In this document: positions 6,836-47,524 of the stretch, piece after piece
Layout: each line of letters starts with the position of its first letter
Numbering within the stretch: position 1 is the first letter of the stretch
Source: Bacteroidota bacterium
GTDB taxonomy: Bacteria; Bacteroidota; Ignavibacteria; UBA10030
DNA: 64,000 bases
Reading direction: 5' to 3'
NCBI GenBank assembly: GCA_040880975.1
Contig: JBBEEC010000029.1
Coordinates: forward strand, 31,054 to 95,053
The notes under the pieces: model-generated
The model's input: the letters and a program-made list of their open reading frames with translations, nothing else
Databases searched by the model: none
What the model was told of the DNA's origin: nothing
Made by a program: the position numbers and the translations under genes

Positions 6836-6908
6836 CGAGTGGTGTCCTCTTTTTCCTGCCGCTCTGCAAGAAGTCGTTGAAACGACTCATGGAATTGGGA
6901 GCGAGCGC
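6836..6908 (-). repeat. ~75-bp MITE/REP-like element with internal hairpin (gtcgttgaaacgac); reverse-complement copy of elements at ~49166-49238 and ~50316-50390
   Basis: Near-identical sequence (agcgctcgctcccaattccatgagtcgtttcaacgacttcttgcagcggcaggaaaaagaggacaccac) recurs at two other loci in the opposite orientation. Confidence 0.7.
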
Positions 6909-8700: not shown

Positions 8701-8808
8701 GTTCAAAGTTCAAAGTTCAAGGTTTAAGGTTCAAGGTTCAAGGTTCAAGGTTCAAGGTTTAAGGTTCAAGGTTCAAGGTTTAAGGTTCAAAGTTCAAGCT
8801 TCACACTT
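8701..8808. repeat. tandem heptanucleotide repeat (GTTCAAG/GTTTAAG/GTTCAAA) x ~15
   Basis: Read directly from the sequence immediately after the gpsA stop. Confidence 0.9.
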
Positions 8809-8817
8809 CCAGGTTTC

Positions 8818-8985
8818 GCAGTTGAGTCCCTCCCAGACTGACATCTGACTTCCGACTTCCGACCTCCGACCTCTGACTTCCGACCTCCCCGAAAACAGAA
8901 TTCGGGGCAAGCCGACCTCTGACTTCCGACCTCCCCGAAAACAGAATTCGGGGCAAGCCGACTTCCGACCTCCAATTCGTCCCAC
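8818..8985. repeat. tandem heptamers (GACTTCC/GACCTCC/GACCTCT) plus 2 direct copies of a 46-bp unit containing hairpin ccccgaaaacagaattcgggg
   Basis: Direct repeat copies lie at ~8865-8910 and 8911-8956. The minus-strand ORFs here are translations of the repeats. Confidence 0.85.
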
Positions 8986-14637: not shown

Positions 14638-14639
14638 AA

Positions 14640-14692
14640 TTGCCAATTGCCAATTTTCAATTGGAAATTGGCAATCGGAAATTGAAAATCCT
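14640..14692 (+). terminator. inverted repeat / hairpin of CAATTG-containing units downstream of ALDH
   Basis: ttgccaattgccaatttt / aattggaaattggcaa inverted repeat immediately after the stop codon. Confidence 0.45.
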
Positions 14693-17107: not shown

Positions 17108-17178
17108 TGCCAATTGACCCGCCCGAACGACCGTGATTGAACCATGAAGTTCGGTCGGGCGGGCAATTGGCAATTGGC
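17108..17178 (+). terminator. long imperfect inverted repeat (attgccaattgacccgcccgaacgacc ... ggtcgggcgggcaattggcaat) after nadE
   Basis: A ~20-bp GC-rich stem is seen directly, flanked by CAATTG heptamer-like repeats. Confidence 0.5.
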
Positions 17179-17180
17179 AA

Positions 17181-17870
17181 TTGAAAATCACCTTGCCTGG
17201 AACGCTCTACATAGTTTCCACCCCTATCGGTAATCTCGAAGACATCACCTACCGCGCCGTCAAGGTGCTTGGTGCCGTTGACCTCATCGCCGCCGAAGAT
17301 ACCCGCAAGACAAAGATCCTCCTCGACCACTACGGCATCAGCAAGCCGATGCTGAGCTACTTCAGCTACAACGAGAAACAGCGGACTCCCCAGCTCATTG
17401 AGCAATTGAAAGGCGGAAAGTCCATTGCGTTGGTCTCGGATGCCGGCACACCCGGGATCTCAGACCCGGCACACCGGATCGTCGTTGCGGCCCTTGCAGA
17501 TGCGATCCCGATCATCCCGATTCCCGGTCCCTCGGCGTTTCTTTCGGCCCTCATTGTCAGCGGGCTTCCGACCCATGGATTTGTTTTCGAGGGCTTCCTG
17601 CCGGTCAAGAAAGGCCGCAAGACGAAGCTGGAGGAGTTGAAGAACGAACGGCGCACGGTGGTTCTCTACGAGTCACCGCACCGCATCGTGAAAACTCTGA
17701 CGGAGATCGGAAGTACATTTGGCGAACGTCAGGTTGTTGTGGCAAGGGAACTGACGAAGAAGTTTGAAGAAATCGTGCGTGGCCCCCTTTCCTTTGTCCT
17801 CAAAGAGATAACATCGAAGCCCGCAAGGGGAGAGTACGTGTTGCTTGTTTCCGGAAACCAGGAACGCTAA
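17181..17870 (+). CDS. rsmI: 16S rRNA (cytidine1402-2'-O)-methyltransferase
   Basis: GTLYIVSTPIGNLEDITYRAVKVL is the RsmI N-terminal signature. The start is TTG at 17181 or 17193. Confidence 0.82.
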   Translation: MKITLPGTLYIVSTPIGNLEDITYRAVKVLGAVDLIAAEDTRKTKILLDHYGISKPMLSYFSYNEKQRTPQLIEQLKGGKSIALVSDAGTPGISDPAHRIVVAALADAIPIIPIPGPSAFLSALIVSGLPTHGFVFEGFLPVKKGRKTKLEELKNERRTVVLYESPHRIVKTLTEIGSTFGERQVVVARELTKKFEEIVRGPLSFVLKEITSKPARGEYVLLVSGNQER

Positions 17871-18567: not shown

Positions 18568-19160
18568 AGATCCCCCACGAGGTGAGTGGTTGAAAGTGCG
18601 GGGGGTGGATGCTTACGATGGTAATAACTTTGGCAGAGAGTGTCAAGTGTGGGTGGTATCTCATTGAAAAAGAGAATCGCAGAGTCGCACCTGCCCGACT
18701 GTGGTTGCCCTAGAATTGGTCAGGCGGGGAGGCCGCAGATCCCAAAGGGACCACTTCGTGGGAATCGCAGAGTGTTCAACAAAAATTGGGGTAATCCTCT
18801 GCGTCACTCCGCGTCCTCTGCGTCTCTGCGTTGATCTTTATTCGGCCGCCCCTACGGGGCTTTTTCGGGTGTCGTGAGGCCTTGCTACCAGAAGGCCGTC
18901 CCTGACGGGACTTGTTGTGCTACACCGGATCACCGGCTCTCCTTACCCATCCTTTTTCGGTCGCCCGGTTGGCTTTCCATTCAGACTTAGCAGGCGCCTA
19001 AAAAAACGGTGAACAGCAAACAGTAAACAGGAAACAGTCCTTCTTTCTATGTCCACTTTTGATCCCATCACCCTTCATTTATCTGACGAAGTCCATTTCC
19101 TGTCAGACGAAGCCGTTTTGTGGCGTAGTCTGACGTGGACGTAGTCAGACCCTTTACTAC

Positions 19161-19214
19161 TTGACAACCACCCCAATTTCTCCTATATTAGCACTCACTC
19201 TCAACGAGTGCTAA
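19161..19214 (+). promoter_or_regulatory. groES promoter (TTGACA-N18-TATATT) overlapping a perfect CIRCE element TTAGCACTC-N9-GAGTGCTAA (HrcA operator, 19188-19214)
   Basis: The exact CIRCE consensus lies ~55 bp upstream of the groES start. The -35 is at 19161-19166 and the -10 at 19185-19190. Confidence 0.85.
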
Positions 19215-19270
19215 TCACCAGATGTCCTTACAAGTCTGTCAAAATCAATTATTTATAAGGAGTTGACGCT

Positions 19271-19584: not shown

Positions 19585-21225
<1,641 letters not shown>

Positions 21226-22660
21226 GGCATCAAATTCGAAATTCGAATTTCGAAATTCGAATTTTACCTCACCGCTTCATCCAGGCAACTGGGTGGAGCG
21301 GTTTTTGTTTTTAGCACGCCACCTCTGGTCGGGAGCTCTGCTCCCCACTCATCCCCCCGCCACAAAACACGGCGGGCAAGCCCGCCAAAAATCGCGGCGG
21401 GCCCCGAAGGGGTCCCTTTGGGACAGGCCGTCCCCCTTCTCTCAAGAGAGAAGGGGGGGTGAGCACCACATCTGGTCGGGAGCTCTGTTCCCCACTCATC
21501 CCCCCGCCAAAAATCGCGGCGGGCCCCGAAGGGGTCCCTTTGGGACAGGCCAACCCGGGGGTGAGCACCAACTCTGGCCGGCTCTACTCCTCCTCGTTTC
21601 CATAGGCCAAAAAAAAACAAGGCATGTCATTCTGCCCGCCCCCGCCAGACCGCAGGCGGGCTGGCCGGCTGAAGTTTATTGAAGGCGGGCCGGGGAGTCC
21701 CGCCTTCCACAGCATTTCCAGGCGGGCGGGACGAAGAATCTGAACACCTCCGCTTAACAAAAGCTCGTATCGGCATAAAAGCTCGCTCATTATTCGTTGT
21801 CGGATTTTCTCACCCAACTCTGGTCGGGAGCTCTGCTCTCCACTCATCCCCCCCCGCCAAAAAACGGCGGGGCAGGCCTTCGGGAAAATTTCGGCCTCTT
21901 TCATCGCCCCGGGATACCTGTCCGCCTTTGGCGGAAATCCCGGGGCTAGATGACCTCATGTAGAGCACAATTCCCCTCCCCGATAAAAAGCATCGGGGCA
22001 GGAAAGGGGAATCCAAACCGTAAAACAGAAAACGACAAAGAACAAACTGAAATCAAACAGAGAGAAGAAAACACAAATAAACAGGGGGGGGTGGGATTTC
22101 TGAATAACAATTCCTTCACTGCGCGTGCCGTTTACTCGCCCCTAGCCCCCGAAATTTTGGCGGTGTGCGGTTGGTGACCTTTGGTGCGTTTAAGTCCCGG
22201 CACCGCCTTTTGCTTGAGTTTGCACCTCTCGCCGTGTGCCGGGACTTCGGCTAATCTCCGTTTTATCCTTGGCGGGGGGATATTATTTTGCGGTGTGTTT
22301 CCCCCTAATGGATATTCCATGGAGGGGTCCCTTCGGGAAAATTTCGGAAGAAAGTTCCCCCGCATCAATTCAAAATAGTGATTAAAGAGCGGGGTCCCGC
22401 TTCGCGGGATCTTTGCTACTTTTCCCGCTCTTTGGATCCCGTCATGAGCGGGATCCTGGAAGGCGGGACTCTTTTGAAGAGAAAGTAGGCCTGCGGCAGC
22501 AAAGAGTCGAGATTAATCCAACAGATCGGGCTTATTCCCTCTTGAACATCCTCATCCAAAGTAATTCGCCGAAAGCCCAGAGCCGATCAATGACGCCGGT
22601 ACTTCGTTACTCCACGAGTTAGGCGTCATTTGAGCCTGCGGGGGATAGAATAATGGGGAG
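21226..22660. repeat. ~1.4-kb non-coding repeat mosaic: AATTCGAA tandem repeats, ~100-145-bp tandem duplications (ctctggtcgggagctctgctccccactcatccccccgccaaaaa...), GTCCCTTTGGGAC-type hairpins, an A-rich ~190-bp element and a ~70-bp palindromic element (ctacttttcccgctctttggatcccg...cgggactcttttgaagagaaagtag)
   Basis: The same units recur at 23400-24200, 39560-40200 and 41990-42330. ORFs in this region are translations of the repeats. Confidence 0.8.
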
Positions 22661-22669
22661 TGTGTTACC

Positions 22670-22978
22670 CTACGAAAGCATCTGAGCAAGGTGTTTTCTT
22701 GAAGCGCCCAATGCCAGCAACGACCGAATTAGCAAATCAAGCGACACTGATGGATCGCCAGCTTCCATCTTTGCCACACGAGATTGGCTTGACTTCAATC
22801 GTCGGGCAAGTTCGTGTTGGGTCAGGTTCTTCTTTCGTCGCACCGCTTGGAGATTCTTGCTTAATGCCAACTTCAGTTCAATATAAGCAGCTTCTTCCTC
22901 TGAGAGATTCAGAAACTCCTGAACAGTTCCAAATTTCCAACCTTTGGCTTCAAGCCGACGGCGTTTTGCAGATTTCAT
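22670..22978 (-). CDS. higA: XRE-family HTH antitoxin (HigA-like)
   Basis: Contains the HTH NLTQHELARRLKSSQSRVAKMEAG. It lies 13 bp downstream of the toxin gene on the same strand. Confidence 0.7.
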   Translation of the reverse strand: MKSAKRRRLEAKGWKFGTVQEFLNLSEEEAAYIELKLALSKNLQAVRRKKNLTQHELARRLKSSQSRVAKMEAGDPSVSLDLLIRSLLALGASRKHLAQMLS

Positions 22979-22990
22979 ATTCTTGCTCCT

Positions 22991-23323
22991 TTACGTTGTA
23001 TCGTACATACGCAGACGCTGTTGACAGTTTCGAACTACTTCCTTCGGCGTCTTTTGAGTTTTCTTTTCAAAGATATCCACCACAAGGACTGCATTGTTAT
23101 CGATCCGATATACGATACGCCAGGTTGTCGTTTCATCCACAATCCGAAGTTCGTGGCAACGCTTACCAATCACTGGCATTGGACGTGACTGTGGTAACGA
23201 AAGCTTCTCCCCCATTTGCACCCGACGAAGCAGATAACCAGCTTCAATTCGTGCTTGGCGCGAGAACGGCGGTGTTTTTATTTCACCGTGGAGCCAACCA
23301 ATCTGCTTTGTCGATCTGTCCAT
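22991..23323 (-). CDS. higB: RelE/ParE-superfamily toxin, HigB/phage Gp49-like
   Basis: 110 aa. The motifs ...GKRCHELRIVDETTTWRIVYRIDNNAVLVVDIFEKKTQKTP fit the Gp49-like killer-protein family, which pairs with XRE antitoxins. Confidence 0.65.
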   Translation of the reverse strand: MDRSTKQIGWLHGEIKTPPFSRQARIEAGYLLRRVQMGEKLSLPQSRPMPVIGKRCHELRIVDETTTWRIVYRIDNNAVLVVDIFEKKTQKTPKEVVRNCQQRLRMYDTT

Positions 23324-23399
23324 GCGAGTATAAGATATGTCATTTCTGATATATAGTCAACACGGCGCAAACGAACGTCTAACACGCCCAATCCCGAAG

Positions 23400-24270
23400 G
23401 GATCCCTTCGGGACAACGACGCTCCCTCATTTTATAGGCGATGATGAAAATGATTGCTAGTGCCACTTCTTCTCTCCCGAGAGAAGGGGGGGTGAGCGCC
23501 ACATCTGGTCGGGAGCTCTGCGGTGGAACCTACGCCCACAAAGACATAGCGAAGGGGTCCCTTTGGGACAAGCCAACCCCTTCTCTCCCGAGAGAAGTGG
23601 GGGGTGAGCGGCACCACTGGTCGGATCTCATGTAGCGCGTGCCGTTTACTCGCCCCTAGCCCCCGAAATTTCGTCCTCTTTCATCGCCCCGGAATGAATT
23701 CCGGGGCTAGATTACCTCACGTAGAGCACAATTCCCCTAAAGGGGAATGGGCTTTCTGTCGACGGGACTTACTGCAGTGTGCTTTACCCATGCCCTTAGC
23801 CCCCGAAATCGCCGGCTGTGTGCGGTGGGCGGCTTAATCGTGCGTTTAATTCCGGCACCGTCCAATGGTCGAGTTTGTGATCTCGCCGTGTGCCGGAATT
23901 TCGGCCTATCTCCGTACTATCTAAGGTGCGGTGGGGATGGTTTGACAACGTGCGTTGCGATTTCGGCGCCCTTTTCTTTTCGTCCATTTTCTTTTGGGCG
24001 GGCAAAAGAAAATGGACTCGCCGAAGGCCCAGAGCCGATCAATGACTCTCCCTTGCATCTTTGCCTTCCCCAAGCTACCTTTCCCCAGCCAGCGGTAACC
24101 CAACGGGGACCAATTCCACATCACGTGAACATTTTCAGGGGCGTGGAATGGTCTTTTGAAGGGTGAGAACGGGAGGAACGCGGCAGAATGAACCTCTGGA
24201 TTCGGGTTTCCGATGAAGGAGGTTTTTGTGTTATGGAGTAGTTGAGTAGTGGAGTATGTGAGTATTTGAG
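23400..24270. repeat. repeat mosaic sharing units with 21226-22660 and 39560-40200, including palindrome ccattttcttttgggcgggcaaaagaaaatgg and GAGTAGT-like heptamers at 24230-24280
   Basis: There are several direct matches to other loci: gcgtgccgtttactcgcccctagcccccgaaatt, tagagcacaattcccctaaaggggaat and cccagagccgatcaatgac. Confidence 0.75.
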
Positions 24271-24306
24271 TAATTGTTGGCTTGGCCTTTCCTAATTGGA
24301 GGCAAA

Positions 24307-24618
24307 ATGGACACATCAACGTGGTTTTTATTGGCAGTCATGTCATTCTCTTGTGGATTCTTCACAACGCACGTTGCCAAGCTCAAAGGGTATGAACCAA
24401 TCGGTTGGTTTTTTGCGGGCTTTTTCTTTTGGATAATAGGCTTGATTGCTGTTATTGGGGTGCCCGAAAAACAAAGGGTTGTGCTCTCGAAGAAAGATGA
24501 AGAATGGATTTGTATGATCTGTAATTATGGAAGACGTGGCCGGGGCCTCTGTGGGATCTGCGGCAATGAACCAAAGTTTATTACTTTACCAAAACCGAGT
24601 CACTCTGCGGCCAGGTGA
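24307..24618 (+). CDS. small membrane protein with C-terminal zinc-ribbon (CxxC...CxxC)
   Basis: An SD-like GGAGG precedes the ATG at 24307. There are two hydrophobic helices, then CMICNYGRRGRGLCGICG. Confidence 0.45.
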   Translation: MDTSTWFLLAVMSFSCGFFTTHVAKLKGYEPIGWFFAGFFFWIIGLIAVIGVPEKQRVVLSKKDEEWICMICNYGRRGRGLCGICGNEPKFITLPKPSHSAAR

Positions 24619-24801
24619 CCGGCCGCTAAGCCGACGAAACCATTCACTATCTTCAGAATCTGGCCATCACCGCTTAAACAAGGCCCGCATAGGCATGAAA
24701 GCTTGAAAAACTTGGCAAAGGTCACCGGCGGCGATTCAAAAGCGGGGTTCTTCGTAATTCGAAGATTGTGCGCCGCCACCGGCTTAGAATGAGATAAGTA
24801 A

Positions 24802-25437
24802 ATGACCCAACCGACACCTCCGACAGAGTCCCAACCAAGCGAGCGGCAGAAAAAGAGATATGAGGTTTCGCTCGATACGCGGAAGTTTGAGATCGATCTG
24901 TTTTGGAGGCGTGCTCTCTTCTTCTGGGGGTTCATTGCCTCTGCCTTCGTAGCTTATGCAGCGTTTTCGAAGGATAGACCCGACGGTCCAACGATTTCTC
25001 TGATAATTTCTCTGTTTGGTCTGGTGTGCTCATTCAGTTGGACTCTTGTAAATCGTGGATCCAAATACTGGCAAGAGAACTGGGAATCGCAAGTTGACAA
25101 AGATGAAGATGCCGTCACAGGCCCGCTATTCAAACAACCCGCCGAACGTCAAAAGAAAGGTTGGTTTGGTGCTCAGAAGTTTTCAGTGAGCAAGCTTGCA
25201 ATTGCCTTAAGCGACTATGTTACGCTCGTTTGGGCTCTACTAATACTCCGCAGTGTGAGAGAAATACCCACAGTCAAGCGATTCTTGGAGGCGGACTGTT
25301 GGCCGTTTCATCTTCAAGACGATACCCTTGTTCTTGTCTTTCTTGTGTTCACGCTCGCTTGGTTGATATTTGTATTTATAAAGAGTGGAACAACAGAACG
25401 AACGCCGGGCGCTGGCGGCGCATCAACAACAGTCTAA
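24802..25437 (+). CDS. hypothetical multi-TM protein (possible SLATT-like 2TM effector; unverified)
   Basis: 211 aa. TM helices ALFFWGFIASAFVAYAAF and TISLIISLFGLVCSFSWTLV are followed by KYWQENWE and a C-terminal helix LVLVFLVFTLAWLIFVFI. Confidence 0.5.
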   Translation: MTQPTPPTESQPSERQKKRYEVSLDTRKFEIDLFWRRALFFWGFIASAFVAYAAFSKDRPDGPTISLIISLFGLVCSFSWTLVNRGSKYWQENWESQVDKDEDAVTGPLFKQPAERQKKGWFGAQKFSVSKLAIALSDYVTLVWALLILRSVREIPTVKRFLEADCWPFHLQDDTLVLVFLVFTLAWLIFVFIKSGTTERTPGAGGASTTV

Positions 25438-25448
25438 CCGAGGAGCCT

Positions 25449-26087
25449 TTGCCCGATACACTTTATCAGGAATTTGAGGATCCGACGGAGGCTTTTGCGC
25501 GCGAGCCCCGTGCCTTTTGCTACGATCTTGCCATAGGTCTCATCAATCAAGCTAAAGCGGAAGCAACCCTATCATGGTACACTCAGACAGAGAGCGTCAA
25601 GGCAATTATCCTGCTCCTCTATTGTTGGAATTTTGCAGCACGCGAAACGAAGAGACTCACATTTGATTCCGTTCGAAATGTACTCAGCACAAATGAACAG
25701 AATCTGCGATTATTGGAGCAGTACACACTACTAACGTTCGATGAGACATCTGAACTACCAATCCAAACCGTTTTCTCCCAATTCCGTGAGGCATTTGGAC
25801 AAACTGGAGCGACTAAAGCCTTGAGCTTGCTCAATCCCAGACTTTTTCTAATGTGGGATACGCGCATACGAGCCAGACTCCGAAGGGAACTTGTCCGCGG
25901 GCTCGACAACGGGCAAACCGAAGACCAATACATTCTGTTCTTGCGCAAAGTGCGCGATTATGCTGCTCAATATAATTTCCAGCAGAGGCTCGCACCCAAT
26001 GCAATCCTAGCGAAGAAAATCGATGAGTATCACTATGTCAGGATTGTGATGGCGCAAAGTGTTTTACACGTGCGGGATACCGCCTAA
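25449..26087 (+). CDS. hypothetical protein (start uncertain; TTG 12 nt after previous stop)
   Basis: The long ORF 25161-26087 overlaps the upstream gene. The first plausible start after its stop is TTG 25449. No recognisable motifs. Confidence 0.35.
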   Translation: MPDTLYQEFEDPTEAFAREPRAFCYDLAIGLINQAKAEATLSWYTQTESVKAIILLLYCWNFAARETKRLTFDSVRNVLSTNEQNLRLLEQYTLLTFDETSELPIQTVFSQFREAFGQTGATKALSLLNPRLFLMWDTRIRARLRRELVRGLDNGQTEDQYILFLRKVRDYAAQYNFQQRLAPNAILAKKIDEYHYVRIVMAQSVLHVRDTA

Positions 26088-26170
26088 CAGGCCGCACAAC
26101 GACGTGTGCTCACTTGAAATTGCAAAAATTAAGCTGTGTTAGGAATAACAATGGGAAGCGACGTTCTTGA

Positions 26171-26926
26171 TTGCCGAAAAGATCTATGAATTCAGATTGG
26201 CGTAGTCTATTGCCAAAAGAACTCGGCCCACTGCCATTCGACGGTGTGCTCACCAGAACGGAAGCCAACGGGTCAATTGATGCTCCCGTTACAGTGCTCG
26301 GAGTTTATCCCGCAGCAGTGCAGTGGCGTCATTTTGTTCGTGATGGAGTCAGGTTGAATTTGCCATCGAAAGTCGAAGAGCACTCTTTCGACCCCCTGTC
26401 CAAGTCAGGAAGCGACCTGGACAAACTCTACTTGCAACCTTTAGGTCTTTCTCGCGGGCATATTCTAGCGGTAGATTTAATGCCGTACTTCTTCGCGAAC
26501 ACTGCGAAGGATTCAAAGAGTCACCGCTCGATGTGGGATAATGTGCGGGACTATACCCGAATTACAGGTCGGAAAACTGCGATCGAACCAAGACCGCCAG
26601 AGGATAAACTCCTGCAAAGGTGTTGGTCGTTACCAGGCAATCAATCCCGTCTTCAAGAATATATTGCGCGAAAATCAGCTCGACTTCTTTTCACGCTTGG
26701 CAGAGAAGCAGCTGCATATGTTCGAGGACATAACCGTGCGATTGATGGACAACAGTATCTTTATTCCAAACCCAAAACGCTCGACCTTTTCGACAACTCT
26801 ATTCTCACCGTTCATTTTGTTCATCCAGGGAATCTTCAACGTTCCAATAACGGGAAGTGGAAAACAACCCACATCGATTGGTGCATAGAATCAGGCCGCG
26901 GATTTGTCAAGTCAGTTTTAGGATGA
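26171..26926 (+). CDS. hypothetical protein with uracil-DNA-glycosylase-superfamily-like motifs
   Basis: VTVLGVYPAA resembles UDG motif A (beta-strand + GxxPx, as in GQDPY/GEAPG). ILTVHFVHPGNL resembles motif B (HPSP) near the C-terminus. The ~190-aa spacing fits a UDG fold. Confidence 0.4.
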   Translation: MPKRSMNSDWRSLLPKELGPLPFDGVLTRTEANGSIDAPVTVLGVYPAAVQWRHFVRDGVRLNLPSKVEEHSFDPLSKSGSDLDKLYLQPLGLSRGHILAVDLMPYFFANTAKDSKSHRSMWDNVRDYTRITGRKTAIEPRPPEDKLLQRCWSLPGNQSRLQEYIARKSARLLFTLGREAAAYVRGHNRAIDGQQYLYSKPKTLDLFDNSILTVHFVHPGNLQRSNNGKWKTTHIDWCIESGRGFVKSVLG

Positions 26927-27078
26927 CGAACCCCCCGACACACGTACGCGAGCTGCGCCGACCGGTGTAAAAAAGGCAGACGACAGGCTCTTGTTGGTTC
27001 GCACCGCAATACGCCCGACGTTTGGTACCATGCCCCGCGAGAACTTGTCTTGCTGAACCGACTGGACGGAGAGTGCAA

Positions 27079-27687
27079 ATGATATCACCGACTCCTCAGA
27101 ATATTCCAAATGAAACCACCGTGCAGGATCTATCAAACCACTACCTGCTATCGTCGCTGCACAGTAGGTCGGCGTGGATATATTGCCCGACTCGACAAGA
27201 GGAGATCCGACTAGGTTATGACGCCTCACTCCAAAACGGGAAGACCGTCCTGCTTCAATACAAATCGCTTAGCTATGCGGGACGATATCTCGTTTCAATT
27301 CGTCTTGACCAGAGACAATTAGCGACTCTGCTTACCAATTTTCCCCAACGGACCACTCCGTATCTCTATTATGGGTTTTGCGACTACCGGTCTTATCGAG
27401 AATTAGACAACGATTTTCTGACAGTGGGCTCTCCAGAATTCTTTAGGCACATGTTGTTCATTGACATCCATTCTCTCGCACCGAATACGCATACTATCCG
27501 TCGTCACAACGATGGAAGCATGACCGGCTTCCCGAGCCAGCAGCAGTTGATTCCAGTGCGAGGACCGAGGATTGCTCAGGGAATCAGAACTTGCACGATT
27601 GGTACGCCAAATAGCAAGAATATGCTTCGGACCCTTCGAGACCGTATTCGAGGATTCACATTGTCAGTGTTGCGTTATGTCCCCTAG
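27079..27687 (+). CDS. hypothetical protein
   Basis: Internal Met (MISPTPQNIP) of the 221-aa ORF. No recognisable motifs. It is co-directional with neighbours. Confidence 0.4.
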   Translation: MISPTPQNIPNETTVQDLSNHYLLSSLHSRSAWIYCPTRQEEIRLGYDASLQNGKTVLLQYKSLSYAGRYLVSIRLDQRQLATLLTNFPQRTTPYLYYGFCDYRSYRELDNDFLTVGSPEFFRHMLFIDIHSLAPNTHTIRRHNDGSMTGFPSQQQLIPVRGPRIAQGIRTCTIGTPNSKNMLRTLRDRIRGFTLSVLRYVP

Positions 27688-27956
27688 AAATTGGTAACAC
27701 ATCAGGGTCCGGGAACATGGGCCTTCGCGCGCGGCACGAGCACCTAACAGCCGCAAAAACGGCGGTCACAACTGTGGAACAAACCAATGCATGCTGTTAC
27801 TCACGACCTAGATTTGCGGCGGAACGGAACAAGGTTTTTTTCCAGACCCTAGAGGGTGGCCCCGCGAGGTTAAGGCCTCTTCCTACTCCCAAATCAGCCT
27901 GATTTGTGTTACCTTTGGTTTGCACCCCCACGCATTCAAATCCAGACAAACAGTAA

Positions 27957-30900
27957 ATGAGCGCATTAAGAGACAACTACGCTAAAGGCACTGTCGGAGA
28001 ATTCCTTAAGGAAGTAATCCGACCGGGCTCAAAGCTCTCTTTCGTGTCTGCATACTTCACGATCTATGCCTACCAGCAACTGAAATCCCAACTGGATGGA
28101 ATCGATCATCTTCGATTTCTGTTTGGTGAGCCAAGGTTCATCAACTCGATTGACCCTTCGAAAACCAATCGCCGTGAATTCAGAATCGATGATGATCAAC
28201 TTGTGATTCCGATTGAAAACCGAATGTCACAAAAAGCGACTGCCAAGGAATGTGCCGAATGGATCAGCAAGAAGGTTGCTATCAAGTCGATGGTCAAGCC
28301 GAACTTCCTCCACGGTAAGCTCTATCATTTGGAAAACCCCAACGGAACAAAAGAATCCATCATGGGAAGTTCCAACTTCACTGTGAGCGGCCTCGGATTA
28401 GGTGGAAGGCACAATATTGAATTAAACATGGTCATCCAGGACCGCCGGGATGCAAACGAACTCGAAGAGTGGTTCAACGGCCTCTGGAACAATCAGGATG
28501 GCCTGGTAGAGGATGTTAAAGAACAGGTGCTGAAGTACCTCGATCAGTTTTATGTCGAAAATGAGCCGGAATTCATCTACTACAAGACCCTGTATCACAT
28601 TTTTGAGAAGTTTCTCGGCGAGCAAGACAAGGGGGGCCTCCTCAACAAGCAGATTGGCTTTTTCGAGAGCGAGATCTGGAGCATGCTTTACGACTTCCAG
28701 CAAGATGGCGTGAAGGGTGCGATCAACAAGATCCTGAAACACAACGGTTGCATTATAGCAGACAGCGTCGGTTTGGGAAAAACCTTCGAGGCCCTTGCTG
28801 TCATTCGCTATTTCGAGCTCCTGAACTGCCGAGTGTTGGTTCTGGTCCCGAAAAAACTCTCCAGCAACTGGACAGTATATCAAGCTGCACAAAACAACAT
28901 CCTTAATCCATTTCGCAAGGATCGTTTCAATTACACCGTCTTATATCACACGGACCTTGGCAGAGTACAAGGTGTTTCCGACGCAAACGGGATCGATCTT
29001 GAACGCTTCAACTGGGGTGCTTACGACCTCGTTGTCATAGACGAAAGCCACAACTTCCGCGGCAATCCTACGGAGAGAACAACCGATGACGGGGAAATCC
29101 GATTGAACCGTGCGAAGTGGTTGATGGAAAAGATCATTAAGGAAGGCACCAAAACGAAGGTCCTCCTGCTTTCGGCGACGCCGGTAAACAACAATCTACG
29201 TGACCTTAGAAATCAACTATTGCTCATCACCGAGGGACGCAAGGATGCATTGTTTGAAGCAACCCAGATAAAGGACATTGAACTTGCATTGAAGAATGCT
29301 CAGACCCAGTTCACGAATTGGGCTGACGCCAAGAAAAATCCTGTTCGAACCGTCAAGCAGTTGCTGGAACGGCTTGATTCCTCATTCTTCAAGCTCCTCG
29401 ACGAGATGACTATCGCTAGGAGCCGCAGGCACGTCAAGAGCTTCTACAACATCAAAGCGGTTGGAAGGTTTGCCGATCGATTGAAGCCACACGCTATCTA
29501 TCCGAGCATTGATGTGAAGGATCGATTCTTCACATATGATGCGTTGAATAAGAAGATCCTGGAATACAAGCTGTCCGTCTTCAATCCCTCAGCATATGTT
29601 AAGCCGGAAATGCAAAAGAAGTATGAAGATCTCGGTGCCGGGCAGGTTCTTGCATTCACCCAGAGCGACCGCGAGAATTTCCTCATCGGCATGATGAAGG
29701 TCAACTATCTCAAACGACTCGAAAGTTCGATCGAATCGTTCGAGATTTCTCTTGACCGCACAATTCGTAAGATCGAAGACCTTGAGAAACGCATTGCTGA
29801 ATTCAAGAAAGCGAAGCCAAATGGACAACAGGTGGATATAGGAGCGGCACAGCCTGAAGAAGACGAGTTTGAGGAGAATGCCGATGATCTGGAACAGTGG
29901 CAGGTGGGCAAGAAATTCAAGGTCGATATGGCCGATCTTCTATTGGACGATTGGCTAAGGGACCTCAATGCCGACAAGCAAGCTCTTTCCGTTCTCTATA
30001 ACGGTGCGGTTGCCGTAACTCCCGATCGGGATGCAAAGCTCAAAGAACTGAAAGACCAAATCGAAAAGAAGATTGAGCATCCTTTAAATGGCATCAACGA
30101 CAAGGTGATCGTGTTCACCGCTTTTGCCGATACAGCTGATTACCTGTACGGATGTCTCAAGGACTGGACAAGAAACGACCTGAAGAAACATATTGCCTTG
30201 GTGGCAGGCAGCTTCACAAAGACAACGCTGGGAAGAAATGATTTCGGAAACATTCTCACCAACTTCTCTCCCATTTCAAAGGACCGCGCCCGGCTTTCCG
30301 AAATGCCTCAGGGTGATGAAATTAGTATCCTGATTGCCACAGATTGCATCAGCGAAGGTCAGAATCTGCAGGATTGCGACTATGTGATCAACTATGACAT
30401 CCATTGGAATCCTGTTCGCATCATTCAGCGGTTTGGGCGCGTTGACCGCATAGGAACCAGGAATGAGAAGATTCAGCTTGTCAATTTCTGGCCTACAAAA
30501 GACCTCGACAATTATATCAATCTAAAAGAACGCGTTGAGGCTCGAATGGCCCTGGTGGACGTGACCGCAACCGGCGAAGACAATATCCTCAACACAGATC
30601 AACTTGAAGAACTGATAGAAGAAGACCTTAAGTATAGGAATCAGCAGCTGAAACGGCTGCGGGATGAAGTGCTTGACCTGGAGGATATGAACGAAAGCGT
30701 CACATTGACTGATTTTACGCTCGACGATTTCCGCGTCGAATTGACAAACTATATCGAGAGCAACAGGAAGCGACTCGAGGAAGCCCCGTTTGGTCTATAC
30801 GCGGTTGTCCCATCTCCATCAGGGGAGCATTCCAACGTTTTGGACGTGACTGCCTTCTCTGCGGCGGAAAGGGCAATTATCAAACCGGGTGTCGTGTATT

Positions 30901-31289
30901 GTTTGAAACAAAAAGGCGACACCGATGGCACCGAAGAAGTGAATCCTCTCCAGCCCTACTTCCTTGTCTACATTTGGGATGACGGACAAGTCAGGTTCAA
31001 CTACACCAATGCCAAGCAAATATTGGAGATCTATCGTCTGATGTGCCAGGGGCGAACCGAAGCCTTCCAAGGTCTGTGTGATCTCTTCAATGAAGAAACA
31101 CAACACGGAAAGAATATGTCGGCCTATACCGAGCGCCTGCAGAAAGCAGTGGAGGAGATCGTGCGTGTATTCAAGAAGAAGATGACACAGCGGATTACCA
31201 CAGACCGCGGTGGATTGATCATGCCGAAGTCAAAACAGGTGGATGAAGTCAACAATTTCGAGCTTGTCTCATGGTTGATTATTCGCTGA
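27957..31289 (+). CDS. PLD-family (HKD) nuclease fused to SNF2-family helicase (DISARM DrmD-like with DrmC-like PLD N-terminus)
   Basis: A single HKD motif is present: NFLHGKLYHLENPNGTKESIMGSSNFTVSGLG. SF2/SNF2 motifs I (ADSVGLGKTFEALAV), II (LVVIDESHNFRG), III (LLLSATPVNN) and V/VI (YDIHWNPVRIIQRFGRVDRIG) are also present. Length is 1110 aa. Confidence 0.8.
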   Translation: MSALRDNYAKGTVGEFLKEVIRPGSKLSFVSAYFTIYAYQQLKSQLDGIDHLRFLFGEPRFINSIDPSKTNRREFRIDDDQLVIPIENRMSQKATAKECAEWISKKVAIKSMVKPNFLHGKLYHLENPNGTKESIMGSSNFTVSGLGLGGRHNIELNMVIQDRRDANELEEWFNGLWNNQDGLVEDVKEQVLKYLDQFYVENEPEFIYYKTLYHIFEKFLGEQDKGGLLNKQIGFFESEIWSMLYDFQQDGVKGAINKILKHNGCIIADSVGLGKTFEALAVIRYFELLNCRVLVLVPKKLSSNWTVYQAAQNNILNPFRKDRFNYTVLYHTDLGRVQGVSDANGIDLERFNWGAYDLVVIDESHNFRGNPTERTTDDGEIRLNRAKWLMEKIIKEGTKTKVLLLSATPVNNNLRDLRNQLLLITEGRKDALFEATQIKDIELALKNAQTQFTNWADAKKNPVRTVKQLLERLDSSFFKLLDEMTIARSRRHVKSFYNIKAVGRFADRLKPHAIYPSIDVKDRFFTYDALNKKILEYKLSVFNPSAYVKPEMQKKYEDLGAGQVLAFTQSDRENFLIGMMKVNYLKRLESSIESFEISLDRTIRKIEDLEKRIAEFKKAKPNGQQVDIGAAQPEEDEFEENADDLEQWQVGKKFKVDMADLLLDDWLRDLNADKQALSVLYNGAVAVTPDRDAKLKELKDQIEKKIEHPLNGINDKVIVFTAFADTADYLYGCLKDWTRNDLKKHIALVAGSFTKTTLGRNDFGNILTNFSPISKDRARLSEMPQGDEISILIATDCISEGQNLQDCDYVINYDIHWNPVRIIQRFGRVDRIGTRNEKIQLVNFWPTKDLDNYINLKERVEARMALVDVTATGEDNILNTDQLEELIEEDLKYRNQQLKRLRDEVLDLEDMNESVTLTDFTLDDFRVELTNYIESNRKRLEEAPFGLYAVVPSPSGEHSNVLDVTAFSAAERAIIKPGVVYCLKQKGDTDGTEEVNPLQPYFLVYIWDDGQVRFNYTNAKQILEIYRLMCQGRTEAFQGLCDLFNEETQHGKNMSAYTERLQKAVEEIVRVFKKKMTQRITTDRGGLIMPKSKQVDEVNNFELVSWLIIR

Positions 31290-31296
31290 ATCAAGA

Positions 31297-34200
31297 ATGA
31301 ACGAAGACATCAAGAGAAGAATTGAGCAGTCTCTTAGGTCGTTTGCGCAGGGAGACCTGACCAAGAATTCCATTGGTCTCTTCCAGACGCTCGGGTATGC
31401 AACGGATCGGCAAGCGCCTCTCGACAAACCAACGTACTCAAATTTCAAAGACTCCTTTGTTCAGGTTGACTCTCGATTCAACGAGGAGAAGGCCCAGACA
31501 AAGGAATGGAAGTGCGTTAACCTTCTCTTCCAGCTAACAAAGGACGAAGTCTCCCGGGACAAGTCGTTGTTTGATACGAAGCAGGTTGACCGCACGATTA
31601 TCGAGACATACCTGTTCTTTGTTATCGAACTCGCACGGCCAGAGTACAGCCGGACAGCTCTTAGCCACATCACACGTGAAGTGAACCGGCTTTTTCCGAT
31701 GCCGACATTAGTTCTCTTCAAACATGGCGGCTCGCTAACACTCTCTGTGATTGACCGACGGTTGCACAAGCGGGATGAAGCGAAAGATGTGCTGGAGAAA
31801 GTTACGTTGATCAAAGATATCAACATCACCTCCCCGCATCGCGCACACATTGACATACTGTTTGACCTCTCACTCCCTGAACTCACGCGCCGGCACTCGC
31901 CGACAAACTTCGTTGAACTGCATGGGGCATGGCGGGCAACGCTCAACATATCCGAACTGAACAAGAAATTTTACAGGGAAATCGCTGCGTGGTATTTTTG
32001 GGCTGTTCGGAGTGTCAAATTCCCACTTCCCTCGAAGGCTACAAACGAGAAGGCCAACCGAGAAATCAACGTCATTCGATTGCTCACCCGTCTCATATTC
32101 GCCTGGTTTCTCAAGGAGAAGAATCTTCTGCCAGATGACTTGTTTGACCGAATGGCCTTATCAAAGCTCCTAAGAGAATTCGATCCAACTAGCGGCAAGA
32201 AGTCAGTCTACTACAAGGCAATTCTACAGAACCTCTTCTTCGCCACACTCAACCAGAAGATGAATACGAAGGAGGAGCCGGACAATCGGCGCTTTCGGTC
32301 GAACAAACGTGGCTATCACAACTATTCTGAAGACTACGGTGTCAAGAATCTTTATCGTTATGAAGAATTGTTCTCTGACACCGGGACGGCTTTGAATTTG
32401 TTTTCTTCAGTTCCGTTCCTCAATGGTGGTCTGTTTGATTGCTTGGATAAGGAGGATCCCGACAAGAAAAACCTCATTGTGCACATCGATGGGTTTTCGG
32501 ATGTGCCGGCAAACCAACCAACGGTTCCAGATGAGGTGTTCTTTGGCCAAGAAGGCGAAATCGATCTCAGCGAGGTATACGACGATAGAAGGAAAAAGCA
32601 CGAACGGGTTCGTGGCTTGGTCCACATTCTGAAGGATTATAAGTTCACAATCGCTGAGAACACTCCGGTTGAAGAAGAAATTGCCCTCGATCCGGAATTG
32701 CTTGGCCAGATCTTTGAAAACCTCCTTGCCGAATACGTTCCCGAAACGGGAACAACGGCACGAAAACGGACCGGGAGTTTCTACACACCCCGCGAGATTG
32801 TCAATTATATGGTCGACGAAAGCCTCCTTGCATACTTAAGAGAGAAGATGCTGCGGGAAAATCCCGCGATCCTTGATGTTGGATCTGAACAGAGTGACGC
32901 TTTCGGCAACAAGGCACGCAAGGGACAACTAAGACTTGAACACAAGTTGGAGCCCAACCGTTGGCACAAAATCTCGGAAAAGCTGGACAACGAGTTGCGG
33001 AAGCTCCTCTCGTATACCGATGAATCTCTCGACTTCACAGAGCGGGATACGGAAGCCTTGATAGAAGCAATTCATTCCATGAGAGTGCTTGATCCCGCAT
33101 GTGGCTCGGGTGCCTTTGTCATGGGTGTCCTCCTCAAAGTTGTACACGTGCTTCACAAACTGGACCCTGAGAACAGTCGTTGGAAGGAGCAACAGCTTGC
33201 CGCCGTAAAGGACATGACCGCCGCCGATCTTCGTCGTGGGACCGTTGAGAGAATAGAGGAGGCCTTCAGTGCACAGAACAACTACGCCGACTACAGTCGC
33301 AAGCTCTTCCTGATCGAGGATTGCATCTACGGCGTAGACATCCAACCCATTGCTGTTCAGATTGCCAAGCTCAGATTCTTTATTTCACTGCTTGTTGACC
33401 AAAAGAACAACGATCAGAAACCAAATCGTGGTGTGCTTTCGCTCCCGAACCTTGAGACAAAGTTCGTTGCTGCCAACACACTTGTCAGCCTTGGCGGACA
33501 GGATGTACTCAAGCCCAAGGAGTTTCATGAGTTTGAAGAGAAGCTGAGGCGAGTGCGGCATGAATATTTCAATGCACGGACACGAAAGGACAAGCTGCAC
33601 TGCATCGAGGAGGACCGGAAACTAAGGCTAGTAATAGCGGAAACTCTAAAAAATCTTGGAATGCCCAAAAGTGTCATTGAGCTTCTGGCTCATTGGGACC
33701 CGTACGATCAGAATGGTGTAGCCGGTTTTTTCTCTGCAGATTGGATGTTCAGCCTCGACAAGGGTTTCGACGTTGTTATCGGCAATCCTCCTTACCTTCG
33801 AGTGCAGGGTTTGCAACAAACCCAACCGGAGTTCATTCCATACTACCGCGAGCGATACAAGTCAGCTACCGGCAATTTTGATCTCTATGCACTATTCATC
33901 GAGCGCGGATACGAACTTCTGTCCATAACCGGCATGCTCGCGTACATTGTTCCCCACAAGTTCTTCCAGGCCAGTTTTGGAGAAGGGTTGCGCCGTTTAC
34001 TCACGGCAAAGAAAGCGCTGGCACAAGTGGTTCGCTTCGGCGCCGCGCAAGTGTTTGAGGAATCGACGACGTACACATGCCTTCTCTTCTTGTCAGCAAA
34101 GGAACAAAGGGAGTTTGATCTCCTTGAAGTTAAGAGCCTTGAGAATGGTGAAGAGGTGCTCCAACACGCACGATGGAGGAATCAGCACCCGGAATACGTT

Positions 34201-35325
34201 TTTGAAACTCTACCAGAACCTGAGAAAACTGATTGGGATTTCTCAATCGGGGAATCTGGCCAAATACTGAAGCGAATGCATCAGCATCCAAAGAAGTTGG
34301 GCGAGCTAACTCATAAGATCTTCCAAGGCCTCGCCACCAGTGCGGATAAGCTTTACGTATTGGAAATCCGACATGAGGAAGAAAACACATATCGCTGCTA
34401 CTCAAGATATAATGAAACGGAATTCGAAATTGAGAAAGCTCTCGTGAAGCCGTTTCTAATGGGCAAAGATGTCCACAGGTACGAACCTGCTGTTGCCCGA
34501 AACGTTGTGATTTTTCCATACCATATCGATGAAGATACTCCCAAGCTAATGACCGCCGCATTCCTAAAGAAGGAGGCACCGTTAGGATGGAAATACTTGA
34601 AGGGAAATAGAGACGCCCTTGCCGGACGTGAAAGGGGGAAGATGGACCATGAGGAATTCTATGCCTACATCTATCCCAAGAACCTCACCGCCTTCGAATC
34701 GATCAAGATCATGACACCGGAAATTTCCCTCGGTTGCAACATGACGCTTGACTTCGAGGGGAGGCTCTACCACACCACAAAGGTCTACAGCTTTGTATTC
34801 AAAGACACCAAGAAGACTCCAACAAAGTATATGCTCGGTTTGCTCAACTCGAGAGTCCTATGGTTCTTTCTCATGAAGACGGGGTACGTGTTGCGTGGAG
34901 GGTACTACACTTTCAAAACGGATTACTTAAAACCATTCCCAATCCCAGATTCCAGCAAAGAACATCAGCAATCAATCGAAACACTTGTTGAATACGTCCT
35001 GCATTTAAAGGCAAAACCAGGAAGGGGCCCATCCGAGACGGCTCAAACTGACCTGATGACAGCATTTTTCGAGCAGCTTATCGATGGGATTGTTTACGAG
35101 TTGTACTTCCCAGAGGAATTCAAGAGCCTCGATCGAAGCGTTGCCCGTATGCTGGCTCATAACCCAATGCCCCCCCTTGCAAGCCTCAAAGGAAACAAGA
35201 AGGATGCAATTGAGGGGGTCTTCAAGAATGTGTATGACCGGGAATCAGAAATCAGAAAGGCGTCGTTCTTCATCGAGTCCATTGAATCTGCTCGGATCAT
35301 TGAGAATGCGACACGGAAGAAATGA
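31297..35325 (+). CDS. gamma-class N6-adenine DNA methyltransferase, Eco57I/PglX/DrmMI-like, with long N- and C-terminal (target-recognition?) extensions
   Basis: Motif X FYTPREIV, motif I VLDPACGSGAFV and motif IV VVIGNPPYLRV are present. Length is 1342 aa. The gene starts 8 bp after the helicase stop. Confidence 0.85.
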   Translation: MNEDIKRRIEQSLRSFAQGDLTKNSIGLFQTLGYATDRQAPLDKPTYSNFKDSFVQVDSRFNEEKAQTKEWKCVNLLFQLTKDEVSRDKSLFDTKQVDRTIIETYLFFVIELARPEYSRTALSHITREVNRLFPMPTLVLFKHGGSLTLSVIDRRLHKRDEAKDVLEKVTLIKDINITSPHRAHIDILFDLSLPELTRRHSPTNFVELHGAWRATLNISELNKKFYREIAAWYFWAVRSVKFPLPSKATNEKANREINVIRLLTRLIFAWFLKEKNLLPDDLFDRMALSKLLREFDPTSGKKSVYYKAILQNLFFATLNQKMNTKEEPDNRRFRSNKRGYHNYSEDYGVKNLYRYEELFSDTGTALNLFSSVPFLNGGLFDCLDKEDPDKKNLIVHIDGFSDVPANQPTVPDEVFFGQEGEIDLSEVYDDRRKKHERVRGLVHILKDYKFTIAENTPVEEEIALDPELLGQIFENLLAEYVPETGTTARKRTGSFYTPREIVNYMVDESLLAYLREKMLRENPAILDVGSEQSDAFGNKARKGQLRLEHKLEPNRWHKISEKLDNELRKLLSYTDESLDFTERDTEALIEAIHSMRVLDPACGSGAFVMGVLLKVVHVLHKLDPENSRWKEQQLAAVKDMTAADLRRGTVERIEEAFSAQNNYADYSRKLFLIEDCIYGVDIQPIAVQIAKLRFFISLLVDQKNNDQKPNRGVLSLPNLETKFVAANTLVSLGGQDVLKPKEFHEFEEKLRRVRHEYFNARTRKDKLHCIEEDRKLRLVIAETLKNLGMPKSVIELLAHWDPYDQNGVAGFFSADWMFSLDKGFDVVIGNPPYLRVQGLQQTQPEFIPYYRERYKSATGNFDLYALFIERGYELLSITGMLAYIVPHKFFQASFGEGLRRLLTAKKALAQVVRFGAAQVFEESTTYTCLLFLSAKEQREFDLLEVKSLENGEEVLQHARWRNQHPEYVFETLPEPEKTDWDFSIGESGQILKRMHQHPKKLGELTHKIFQGLATSADKLYVLEIRHEEENTYRCYSRYNETEFEIEKALVKPFLMGKDVHRYEPAVARNVVIFPYHIDEDTPKLMTAAFLKKEAPLGWKYLKGNRDALAGRERGKMDHEEFYAYIYPKNLTAFESIKIMTPEISLGCNMTLDFEGRLYHTTKVYSFVFKDTKKTPTKYMLGLLNSRVLWFFLMKTGYVLRGGYYTFKTDYLKPFPIPDSSKEHQQSIETLVEYVLHLKAKPGRGPSETAQTDLMTAFFEQLIDGIVYELYFPEEFKSLDRSVARMLAHNPMPPLASLKGNKKDAIEGVFKNVYDRESEIRKASFFIESIESARIIENATRKK

Positions 35326-37160: not shown

Positions 37161-37374
37161 TGGATAGCGAGGGAACCATCGCATTTCGCCTATTGAGTTT
37201 CGCACAGGTGATGGTACCGCAAATAGGGGAAAAGGGCTTCATATCTCGGTGGCAACAATGCCGATGTCACCGAGCGGCTTTGTCCTGAGTGCCAGCGTGG
37301 GATGCCGGGGATAGGGTAGTGGATATGATGGGACTCAATAGTACAAATCGAGAGATCGACCGGATTGTGCACAT

Positions 37375-39246: not shown

Positions 39247-39249
39247 ATC

Positions 39250-40700: not shown

Positions 40701-40711
40701 CGAGGATATCA

Positions 40712-41669: not shown

Positions 41670-41699
41670 ATCCGTTCCTGCCAGGAAATAGAACACGGA

Positions 41700-43406: not shown

Positions 43407-43620
43407 TTCAGACGATCAGGCATCAAATAAACTCCTTTTAATCCCCGCCACATAGCGCGGCGGGCAGGCGTTCCTTTTCCGTTTTATCTGATTTTTCCGT
43501 GTCCCATATCGGAGGATATCAAGCAAAAGGTCAATTAGAAGGTGTTTTGCTGCACAACTATTCACCCTGGACAGTGGTCTAATCTGGATACCCAACAACA
43601 AAACCATCCGTGAGGTATCC

Positions 43621-47471: not shown

Positions 47472-47524
47472 ACCCGAACTTCGAACCTCGAACTTCGAAC
47501 TTCGAACTTCAAACTTCAAACCCC

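Follow-up and report, generated by a model that had tools for sequence, protein, structure and literature searches.

A hairpin-rich intergenic repeat mosaic around toxin-antitoxin and defence genes in a groEL-dnaG island

In Neisseria intergenic mosaic elements (NIMEs), arrays of diverse 50-150-bp units are each bounded by a conserved short inverted repeat, and a proposed role of these arrays is to favour the exchange of neighbouring genes by recombining with incoming DNA (PMC1797815). Sub-families of repetitive extragenic palindromes (REPs) differ by complementary changes in their stems (PMC3733652; PMC3116915). Here we analyse a repeat mosaic at positions 21226-24270 of a 64,000-nt stretch of contig JBBEEC010000029.1 from a Bacteroidota bacterium (the whole stretch is referred to as the window). 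This span forms the left of two arrays that bracket a cluster of defence genes in an island between groEL and dnaG. Its modules do not code for protein, compensatory changes preserve their hairpins, all copies are co-oriented, and they flank different cargo at different loci. We give an even chance to the view that this is a lineage-restricted, hairpin-rich intergenic mosaic, akin to NIMEs and to bacterial interspersed mosaic elements (BIMEs), which would have spread by duplicative recombination and would supply portable homology for the gain and loss of cassettes. The role in recombination is one that we infer from the arrangement of the repeats. The feature itself is real but fairly ordinary, a new and very narrowly distributed case of an intergenic mosaic.

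As in NIMEs, where dRS3 inverted repeats flank RS units, the locus consists of long non-coding arrays of many short repeat families that are strain-variable and lie near variable genes, and one of its hairpins (ATTCCCC-TAAA-GGGGAAT) resembles dRS3 (ATTCCC-N8-GGGAAT). In contrast to NIMEs, there is no single 20-bp separator per unit, the modules measure 65-450 bp and are co-oriented, and the neighbours are toxin-antitoxin (TA) and defence genes rather than surface-antigen genes; the phylum is a different one and there is no sequence relationship. With REPs, BIMEs and REP doublets that form hairpins (REPINs) the locus shares short (20-40 nt), GC-rich extragenic palindromes that cluster with other motifs and often lie just downstream of genes. 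It differs in having no GTAG/CGTC tag (by eye), no inverted dimers and, in the window, no gene for a REP-associated tyrosine transposase (RAYT), the enzyme that mobilises REPs. Moreover, the copies seen keep to variable regions and are not spread through intergenic DNA as a whole, and nothing among REPs corresponds to the larger modules.

Two further systems invite comparison. Clusters of attC sites that occur without an integron integrase are known as CALINs. Integron arrays and CALINs resemble the present locus in that small, often promoterless or selfish cargo lies between structured repeats that conserve their fold better than their sequence. Unlike in those arrays, we found neither attC architecture nor IntI here, the spacers are ten times the length of attC, and the junctions carry variable direct repeats. 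Minimal mobile elements, described for Neisseria, are sites of cassette replacement between conserved flanking genes. The accessory block studied here likewise sits between core genes (groEL and dnaG), is absent in relatives and comes without an integrase, but all the relatives recovered have an empty groEL-dnaG site, with no alternative cassettes among them.

The island and its repeat modules

The best matches of the window's GroEL are 94-99% identical, and the named ones belong to Ignavibacterium or to metagenome-assembled genomes of Ignavibacteriales, which places the host among Ignavibacteria-like bacteria. In seven of seven contigs of relatives, representing four distinct GroEL variants (94-99% identical), dnaG follows groEL after ~180-280 bp. 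Similarity of the window to these contigs ends at 21311 and restarts at 45521, and the intervening DNA therefore constitutes a strain-specific island. Its plan places the defence cluster in the centre and a ~3-kb array of TA or other small genes and repeat mosaic on either side; within each array, small cargo alternates with ~1-1.5-kb non-coding stretches of modules. The same module families stand as direct repeats on both sides of the cluster, and the repeat units quoted in the original prediction were all found in place and recurring when positions 20800-24700 were read and searched for repeats. Two corrections apply to the span as it was first delimited. It does not consist of mosaic throughout, since its first 87 positions are native groEL 3' flank that is conserved in relatives (L002, L003, L007 and L008). 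In addition, the assertion that it has no coding capacity holds for the remaining blocks but not for 22670-23323, where a HigBA pair lies on the minus strand behind a promoter-like site (23360-23332, minus strand).

21313-45520: strain-specific island of ~24.2 kb, with the groEL terminator on one side and the dnaG promoter on the other, delimited by relatives' contigs in which groEL abuts dnaG
21226-21312, plus strand: native groEL 3' flank, outside the mosaic, with a heptamer tandem repeat (21232-21264) and an intrinsic terminator (21271-21302)

In the four non-coding blocks, self-blastn matches account for 67%, 54%, 67% and 61% of the sequence, and in the TA and defence genes for 0%; one third to one half of each block is single-copy. 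The non-coding blocks of the span share modules with 39.2-42.8 kb and with one contig from outside, L001. The two blocks of the span contain 4.4 and 6.3 perfect hairpins (stem of at least 7) per kb, compared with 0.7-1.2 per kb elsewhere in the window, a density 4-6 times higher, and blocks 1-3 hold 6, 6 and 3 of them where shuffles predict ~1. Every non-palindromic match between copies is direct. Indels between module copies are not multiples of three, the copies share no open frame, and a 1703-aa concatenate of 17 stop-free module translations, meant to pick up spurious ORFs annotated on similar repeats in other genomes, retrieved nothing at E <= 1e-3 among 5.8 billion proteins. The modules are therefore non-coding and, given the last result, unlikely to be debris of known genes.

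Unit A is arranged together with companion hairpins in short, degenerate arrays, whose parts are as follows.

21319-21383, 21466-21530 and 21814-21878, with truncated copies at 23497 and 42220, plus strand: unit A (CTGGTCGGGAGCTCTG..CCACTCATCCCCCCGCC), defined from repeat families by self-blastn
21313-21600, plus strand: unit-A array with a period of ~122-147 nt, containing the unit A copies 21319-21383 and 21466-21530 (families D9, D11 and D6)
21405, 21527, 23395, 23550 and 40471: GTCCCTTTGGGAC-type hairpin or CCCCGAAGGGGTCCCTTTGGGAC twin hairpin (the first two at 21405-21434 and 21527-21556)
21432-21457, plus strand: hairpin CCCCCTTCTCT/AGAGAAGGGGG
21805-21878, plus strand: third copy of unit A, terminating in the A-loop hairpin CCCCGCC-A6C-GGCGGGG
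23386-23634, plus strand: fragmentary unit-A array with CCCCGAAGGGGTCCCTTTGGGAC-type hairpins and two unit-A copies truncated past the 5' half
42220-42257, plus strand: 3' piece of unit A inside a 648-bp insert
40348-40437, plus strand: pair of small hairpins, GCCCCTACGGGGC and GTCCCTAAAGGGAC, found again beyond the island at 18839-18925 (81% identical over 81 nt)

The long element (LE) measures ~450 bp and has four copies in the window. Its parts follow one another as a 5' hairpin module, an optional A-rich segment, a ~200-nt core, a variable hairpin and a 28-nt terminal motif, CGCCGAARGCCCAGAGCCGATCAATGAC. Copy alignments place the A-rich segment in LEa, LEc and L001 and show it to be absent from LEb; what had been described as an A-rich element of ~190 bp in its own right is this optional internal segment. 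Its copies at 22003-22094 and 39783-39874 are 93% identical, LEa as such is 93% identical to L001 over 168 nt, and a 36-nt hairpin with a 15-bp stem recurs at 23982-24017 and 40112-40147. Searches with nhmmer recovered the LE core four times in the window and once on L001, together with one fragment, and found none in ~100 kb from relatives. Alternatively, LE is extended on its 3' side by a 185-bp module, which closes with the same terminal motif, and the 70-bp palindromic element of the original prediction turned out to be the 5' part of this module. Each of the three occurrences of the terminal motif is followed by a different right flank. A CCGAAATTTCGG-like palindromic motif recurs inside LE. 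For the candidate separator CGAAATTTCG the window has 9 matches (6.2 +/- 2.1 expected), 7 of them in the blocks, and it does not stand at the bounds of every unit.

21877-22400, plus strand: LEa, with 5' hairpin module 21877-22010, A-rich segment 22003-22094 and core 22111-22350 (nhmmer 3.9e-46)
23635-24046, plus strand: LEb, permuted and without A-rich segment, with core 23767-23967, hairpin 23982-24017 and terminal motif 24019-24046 (nhmmer 8e-47)
39609-40172, plus strand: LEc, with A-rich segment 39783-39874, core 39894-40096 and hairpin 40112-40147 (nhmmer 2.5e-57)
41819-42015, plus strand: core of LEd, within the 648-bp insert 41697-42344
22410-22594, plus strand: 185-bp module, copy 1, with a composite palindrome of ~70 bp at the 5' end and the terminal motif CGCCGAARGCCCAGAGCCGATCAATGAC at 22567-22594
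42023-42207, plus strand: 185-bp module, copy 2, 92% identical to copy 1

A stretch of ~57 nt within the A-rich segment shows no difference between its three copies (22004-22060, 39784-39840 and 3055-3111 of L001), although the flanks are only 77-93% identical. We considered and rejected a hydrophobic type I toxin peptide on the minus strand of this segment (...FDFSLFFVVFCFTVWIPL, three copies), the start, frame and stop of which differ between copies. Counted by reading, the copies of FDFSLFFVVFCFTVWIPL show four amino-acid-changing differences and no synonymous one, and the peptide found no protein match.

Folding of the modules

The blocks fold to energies below those of dinucleotide-preserving shuffles (z about -4 to -11; plus-strand values -8.4, -4.0, -7.7 and -4.6), compared with plus-strand z values of -0.6 to +0.9 for three coding controls. 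Whole blocks fold without strand preference. In the consensus fold of the LE core, 90.9% of cells are paired, against 36-51% when the partners are slid, and ten pairs show compensatory changes, a number that none of 500 shuffles reaches; this covariation comes from five copies only, and the structure was derived from those same sequences. Variants of the central stem of the core read CAC/GTG, CGC/GCG and GCCGC/GCGGC. Compensatory changes could also be read directly in hairpins, which carry GCCCCGGGAT/ATCCCGGGGC in one case and GCCCCGGAAT/ATTCCGGGGC in the other, or CCCCGCC/GGCGGGG and CCCCGAT/ATCGGGG.

Single copies folded with z values of only -0.1 to -2.75. The consensus fold reached -34.2 kcal/mol on the plus strand and -24.7 kcal/mol on the minus strand, with many G-U pairs. 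Assignment of the element to the plus strand from these pairs was rejected, as the advantage is compositional and disappears once composition is controlled. No Rfam 15 family matched in the window; at E <= 1 there was a single match, of 19.7 bits against a threshold of 80. Promoter-like and terminator-like sites in the blocks show no excess over shuffles, so intrinsic terminators or promoters were discarded as the cause of the hairpins. Likewise, Tandem Repeats Finder detected no array of the ToxI type (type III antitoxins, with ~34-49-nt repeats upstream of the toxin) near any toxin gene, and only periods of 7-25 nt elsewhere.

Insertion scars, distribution and origin

Insertions in the window are bounded by direct repeats of variable length (9, 20, 29, 238 and 378 bp). 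Two 378-bp copies enclose a ~2-kb insert that carries LEc and a HicA pair. The right copy is itself split by two inserts, one of 648 bp (41697-42344) with a 20-nt direct repeat at its bounds, which holds LEd, copy 2 of the 185-bp module and a piece of unit A, and one of 42 bp (42424-42465) with a 9-nt direct repeat at its bounds. HigBA and LEb are flanked by two copies of the 28-nt terminal motif, a direct repeat of 28-29 nt, and the 185-bp direct repeats stand 19.6 kb apart around the whole defence cluster. After CACG, both inserts in the right copy open with the same 18 nt, GAAAAA[G/T]CGGATTAGACG (41698-41715 and 42431-42448), for which the chance expectation is 0.18 matches.

39018-39395, plus strand: left copy of the 378-bp direct duplication, comprising the 3' end of the glyoxalase gene and its downstream flank (families D2, D15 and D20)
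41441-42530, plus strand: right copy of the 378-bp direct duplication, split by the 648-bp and 42-bp inserts

Flanking duplications of variable length are the trace of single-crossover entry of circles or of slippage and template switching, and not of a transposase or integrase. By eye, we saw no terminal inverted repeats (TIRs) and no target-site duplications (TSDs) of constant length when the ends of the 185-bp module, LE and the A-rich segment were compared between copies, including, for the last, the copy that lacks it. The lack of these features, the co-orientation of the copies and the finding that the A-rich and palindromic pieces belong to larger units leave the suggested graveyard of miniature inverted-repeat transposable elements (MITEs) unsupported. 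Pfam-type domain searches of the island open reading frames (ORFs) scanned found no recombinase, transposase or integrase domain, nor a Y1 or tyrosine recombinase.

The window has such arrays nowhere but in the strain-specific island and at 18.7-18.9 kb, a further variable site; relatives are without them. This second variable site (18568-19250) is gene-free in the window and has hairpin modules in common with the island (18839-18925, which corresponds to 40348-40437, and 18727-18761); there, between a Por_Secre_tail gene and groES, relatives carry a 307-aa gene, a 370-aa gene or nothing. A scan of 185,579 GTDB species genomes returned L001, a 3.5-kb contig of another assembly, as the only outside contig with modules, and it presents the same modules in the same internal order around Fic/Doc with a helix-turn-helix (HTH) protein, KilA-N and HicAB. 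The modules were absent from the syntenic DNA of relatives (~100 kb), from Joint Genome Institute (JGI) metagenomes (two pattern scans), from viral contigs (two scans) and from plasmids and phages (BLAST). Uniqueness of the units to this locus, which would have counted against the original prediction, is thereby excluded, though they are extremely rare in public data.

We propose duplicative recombination, either homologous or microhomology-mediated, as the route by which copies spread. It could proceed, for example, through single-crossover entry of circles or through template switching at hairpins, and a dedicated transposase or integrase would not be needed. Resident modules would then offer homology tracts for the insertion, swap or deletion of TA and defence cassettes, the two 185-bp direct repeats being a candidate tract of this kind, and structured repeats would accumulate in dispensable DNA. 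Recombination substrates for cassette exchange, one of the functions suggested originally, are the best architectural fit to shared families around different cargo and to nested inserts bounded by direct repeats. Several points weigh on the other side. The mechanism is read from scars, with no exchange or other recombination event observed, and the modules are known from 64 kb of this genome and one 3.5-kb contig. The shared 18-nt start of the inserts after CACG suggests a process with a preference for certain sites more than recombination of a generic kind, the sharp and reproducible 3' boundary of the 28-nt terminal motif would resemble the end of a mobile element, and the 96-97% identical direct repeats around cassettes could stem from chimeric assembly of two strains.

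The insert starts and the terminal boundary, with its three different right flanks, would also suit non-autonomous mobile elements, either REP- or REPIN-like or derived from IS200/IS605, that were mobilised in trans and piled up in dispensable DNA. Dense, short GC-rich hairpins in extragenic DNA agree with such an origin, strict co-orientation fits strand-biased single-strand transposition, some small hairpins appear to be inserted in the loops of older ones, and related repeat classes have been reported in Chlorobi and Bacteroidetes (PMC3733652). We nevertheless regard it as unlikely. No GTAG/CGTC tag stands beside the stems (by eye, following the definition of PMC3733652), CGTC being seen only where it overlaps a stem (GTCCC/GGGAC), and since all copies are direct there are no head-to-head or tail-to-tail dimers. 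Furthermore, the flanking direct repeats measure anything from 9 to 378 bp with no TIRs or constant TSD seen, the island ORFs scanned include no Y1 or other transposase, and the modules are missing from ~100 kb of relatives, from the two JGI scans and from all but one contig of the 185,579 genomes. An assembly artefact, in which near-identical segments of co-occurring strains were joined in series to give part of the mosaic, would account for cassette-bounding direct repeats whose 92-97% identity is the divergence expected between strains, and GroEL variants of 98% and 99% in a single ENA assembly imply that close relatives do coexist. Its probability appears very small when set against the recurrence of the same module families and internal order on the independent contig L001, the indels and nested inserts, and not point differences alone, that separate the copies, and a hairpin enrichment and covariation that are independent of the long duplications.

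A role at the RNA level, to which the originally suggested structured sRNAs would belong, with the LE core as a structured non-coding RNA of the plus strand and the small hairpins insulating or stabilising transcripts between oppositely oriented TA cassettes, seems to us improbable. It could explain why compensatory changes maintain the central stem and other helices, why the consensus fold is stronger on the plus strand and rich in G-U pairs, why many loops read as UUCG or UACG types, and why three copies of the A-rich segment agree fully over 57 nt between flanks of 77-93% identity. It is at odds with the lack of an Rfam match above threshold even at E <= 1, with promoter- and terminator-like sites no more frequent than in shuffles, with the single-copy z values, with a strand difference that is compositional and not seen in whole blocks, and with the inconsistent position of the modules relative to TA genes; the covariation, moreover, rests on five copies and on a structure drawn from the same sequences. 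We attach hardly any probability to site-specific cassette arrays of the integron/attC or Xer/dif-module type, in which the modules would be recombination sites. Here the cargo is integron-typical (TA pairs, glyoxalase, gene fragments), each 'cassette' closes with a structured module of defined 3' end, and the CCGAAATTTCGG-like palindrome that recurs in LE has 7 of its 9 window matches in the blocks, although its frequency across the window is not above chance (9 against 6.2 +/- 2.1). A heuristic scan for cores 50-160 nt apart yielded 12 RYYYAAC/GTTRRRY core pairs in the island, none with complementary arms (best arm score 2/24), and no attC candidate distinct from the few in the rest of the window; the island ORFs scanned encode no tyrosine recombinase or IntI, and the 1-1.5-kb non-coding spacers are far longer than attC sites. 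A dif/Xer site was considered at GGTGYGTTAAAT, which is like half a dif arm, and dropped as no palindromic partner was seen (by eye, with no formal test). As a long shot, LE, with its conserved multi-helix core of ~200 nt and its sharp 28-nt 3' end, might be the boundary site of an undescribed integrase-free cassette system, working either in the form of folded DNA or as a guide or scaffold made of RNA, by which TA and defence genes would have moved into Ignavibacteria-like islands and of which the insert-edge motif GAAAAANCGGATTAGACG would mark the reaction.

Should duplicative recombination have built the locus, a non-Proteobacterial intergenic mosaic would be the scaffold of a defence and TA island, and the direct repeats of 9-378 bp would point to cassette entry by homologous or microhomology-mediated recombination without an integrase. 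This would be relevant to the assembly of defence islands at junctions of core genes where a lineage shows no visible mobile-element machinery. Practical value is limited, with modules in one window and one 3.5-kb contig across the public data searched. Two by-products are the most useful: the groEL-dnaG island has been delimited, and a TA cassette flanked by long direct duplications has been recognised as a scar that recurs.

Cargo genes and other repeats in the window

The GC content of the cargo at 24.8-38.7 kb is 47-50%, compared with 52-58% in the flanks, and its defence cluster gives no clean fit to any single named PADLOC system. HigBA is the cargo of the left array; that of the right array comprises a glyoxalase gene, HicA together with its partner ORF, a fragment of glyoxalase, and Phd/ParE. 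HicA and its partner (40712-41327) are the cargo of the insert enclosed by the 378-bp duplication. Exact-protein look-ups of GroEL, glyoxalase and HigB produced no match.

22670-22978, minus strand: HigA-like HTH antitoxin (Pfam HTH_3, 3.3e-9)
22991-23323, minus strand: Gp49/HigB-type toxin (Pfam Gp49, 5.4e-11)
24802-38658, plus strand: cargo between the two repeat/TA arrays, an 8xMP membrane protein and defence-type genes (Pfam; PADLOC, including C3a139 at 5e-131)
27957-31289, plus strand: HKD and Snf2 helicase in the cargo region
31297-35325, plus strand: type IIG-like methyltransferase (PADLOC REase_MTase_IIG, 2e-91)
35322-37160, plus strand: SMC-like ATPase (weak mad3 and LmuB matches)
37375-38658, plus strand: 427-aa protein without assigned function, among the unannotated proteins of the cluster
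40214-40277: glyoxalase 3' fragment, downstream of LEc
40712-41017, minus strand: HicA toxin (Pfam HicA_toxin, 8e-6; 26.3 bits, just below the gathering cut-off of 27)
41010-41327, minus strand: HicA partner ORF, upstream of HicA, without Pfam match
42803-43406, plus strand: Phd/YefM antitoxin and ParE toxin pair (Pfam, 6e-12 and 7e-18)
49005-49242 and 50169-50406: 238-bp direct repeats, the first including the last ~45 nt of the geranylgeranyl reductase gene

The 238-bp repeats, 97% identical, lie outside the island and enclose a BrnT/BrnA-like pair (49505-49774 and 49771-50070). BrnT scored 28.3 bits, below its Pfam cut-off of 34.5, whereas BrnA and CopG_antitoxin were above theirs. The relative L002 is without this cassette and has a 73-bp spacer instead.

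A separate dispersed family outside the island consists of a 69-nt repeat with the hairpin GAGTCGTT-TCA-AACGACTTC, found downstream of three genes (6839-6907, 49172-49238 and 50334-50402); the copy at 6.8 kb is inverted with respect to the other two. Many intergenic spacers of the window have tandem heptanucleotide repeats straight after the stop codon (AGGTTCA, GACCTCC, AATTGCC, AAATTCG, CGAAATC and others), which recall the STRR (short tandemly repeated repetitive) sequences of cyanobacteria. The repeat that follows groEL is also present in the relatives L002, L007 and L008, with other heptamers.

8699-8803, 8840-8973, 14638-14689, 17162-17183, 21232-21264, 40640-40688, 47414-47521 and 47754-47785: tandem heptanucleotide repeats

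A GGGATTTGCTTTTTTCCCGCTT-like repeat with a period of ~24 nt (45404-45515) marks the island's right edge, immediately before the dnaG promoter; it is also seen on L001 (3141-3192) and weakly in relatives. The promoter-proximal 16 nt of dnaG, TTGTCCTTTGCTATTT, occur twice, at 45459 and 45526. Upstream of groES, 19187-19215 holds an operator of the CIRCE type (controlling inverted repeat of chaperone expression; TTAGCACTC-N9-GAGTGCTAA) together with a sigma-70-like promoter (TTGACA / TATATT); the organism therefore uses standard -35/-10 promoters. Finally, the motif GTGTCCCATATCG(G)AGGATATCA is found at two sites in the island (40691-40712 and 43501-43522), and three tandem relatives of it lie upstream of an aldehyde dehydrogenase gene in L002 (2391-2604); it may be a regulatory or repeat motif of the whole lineage.

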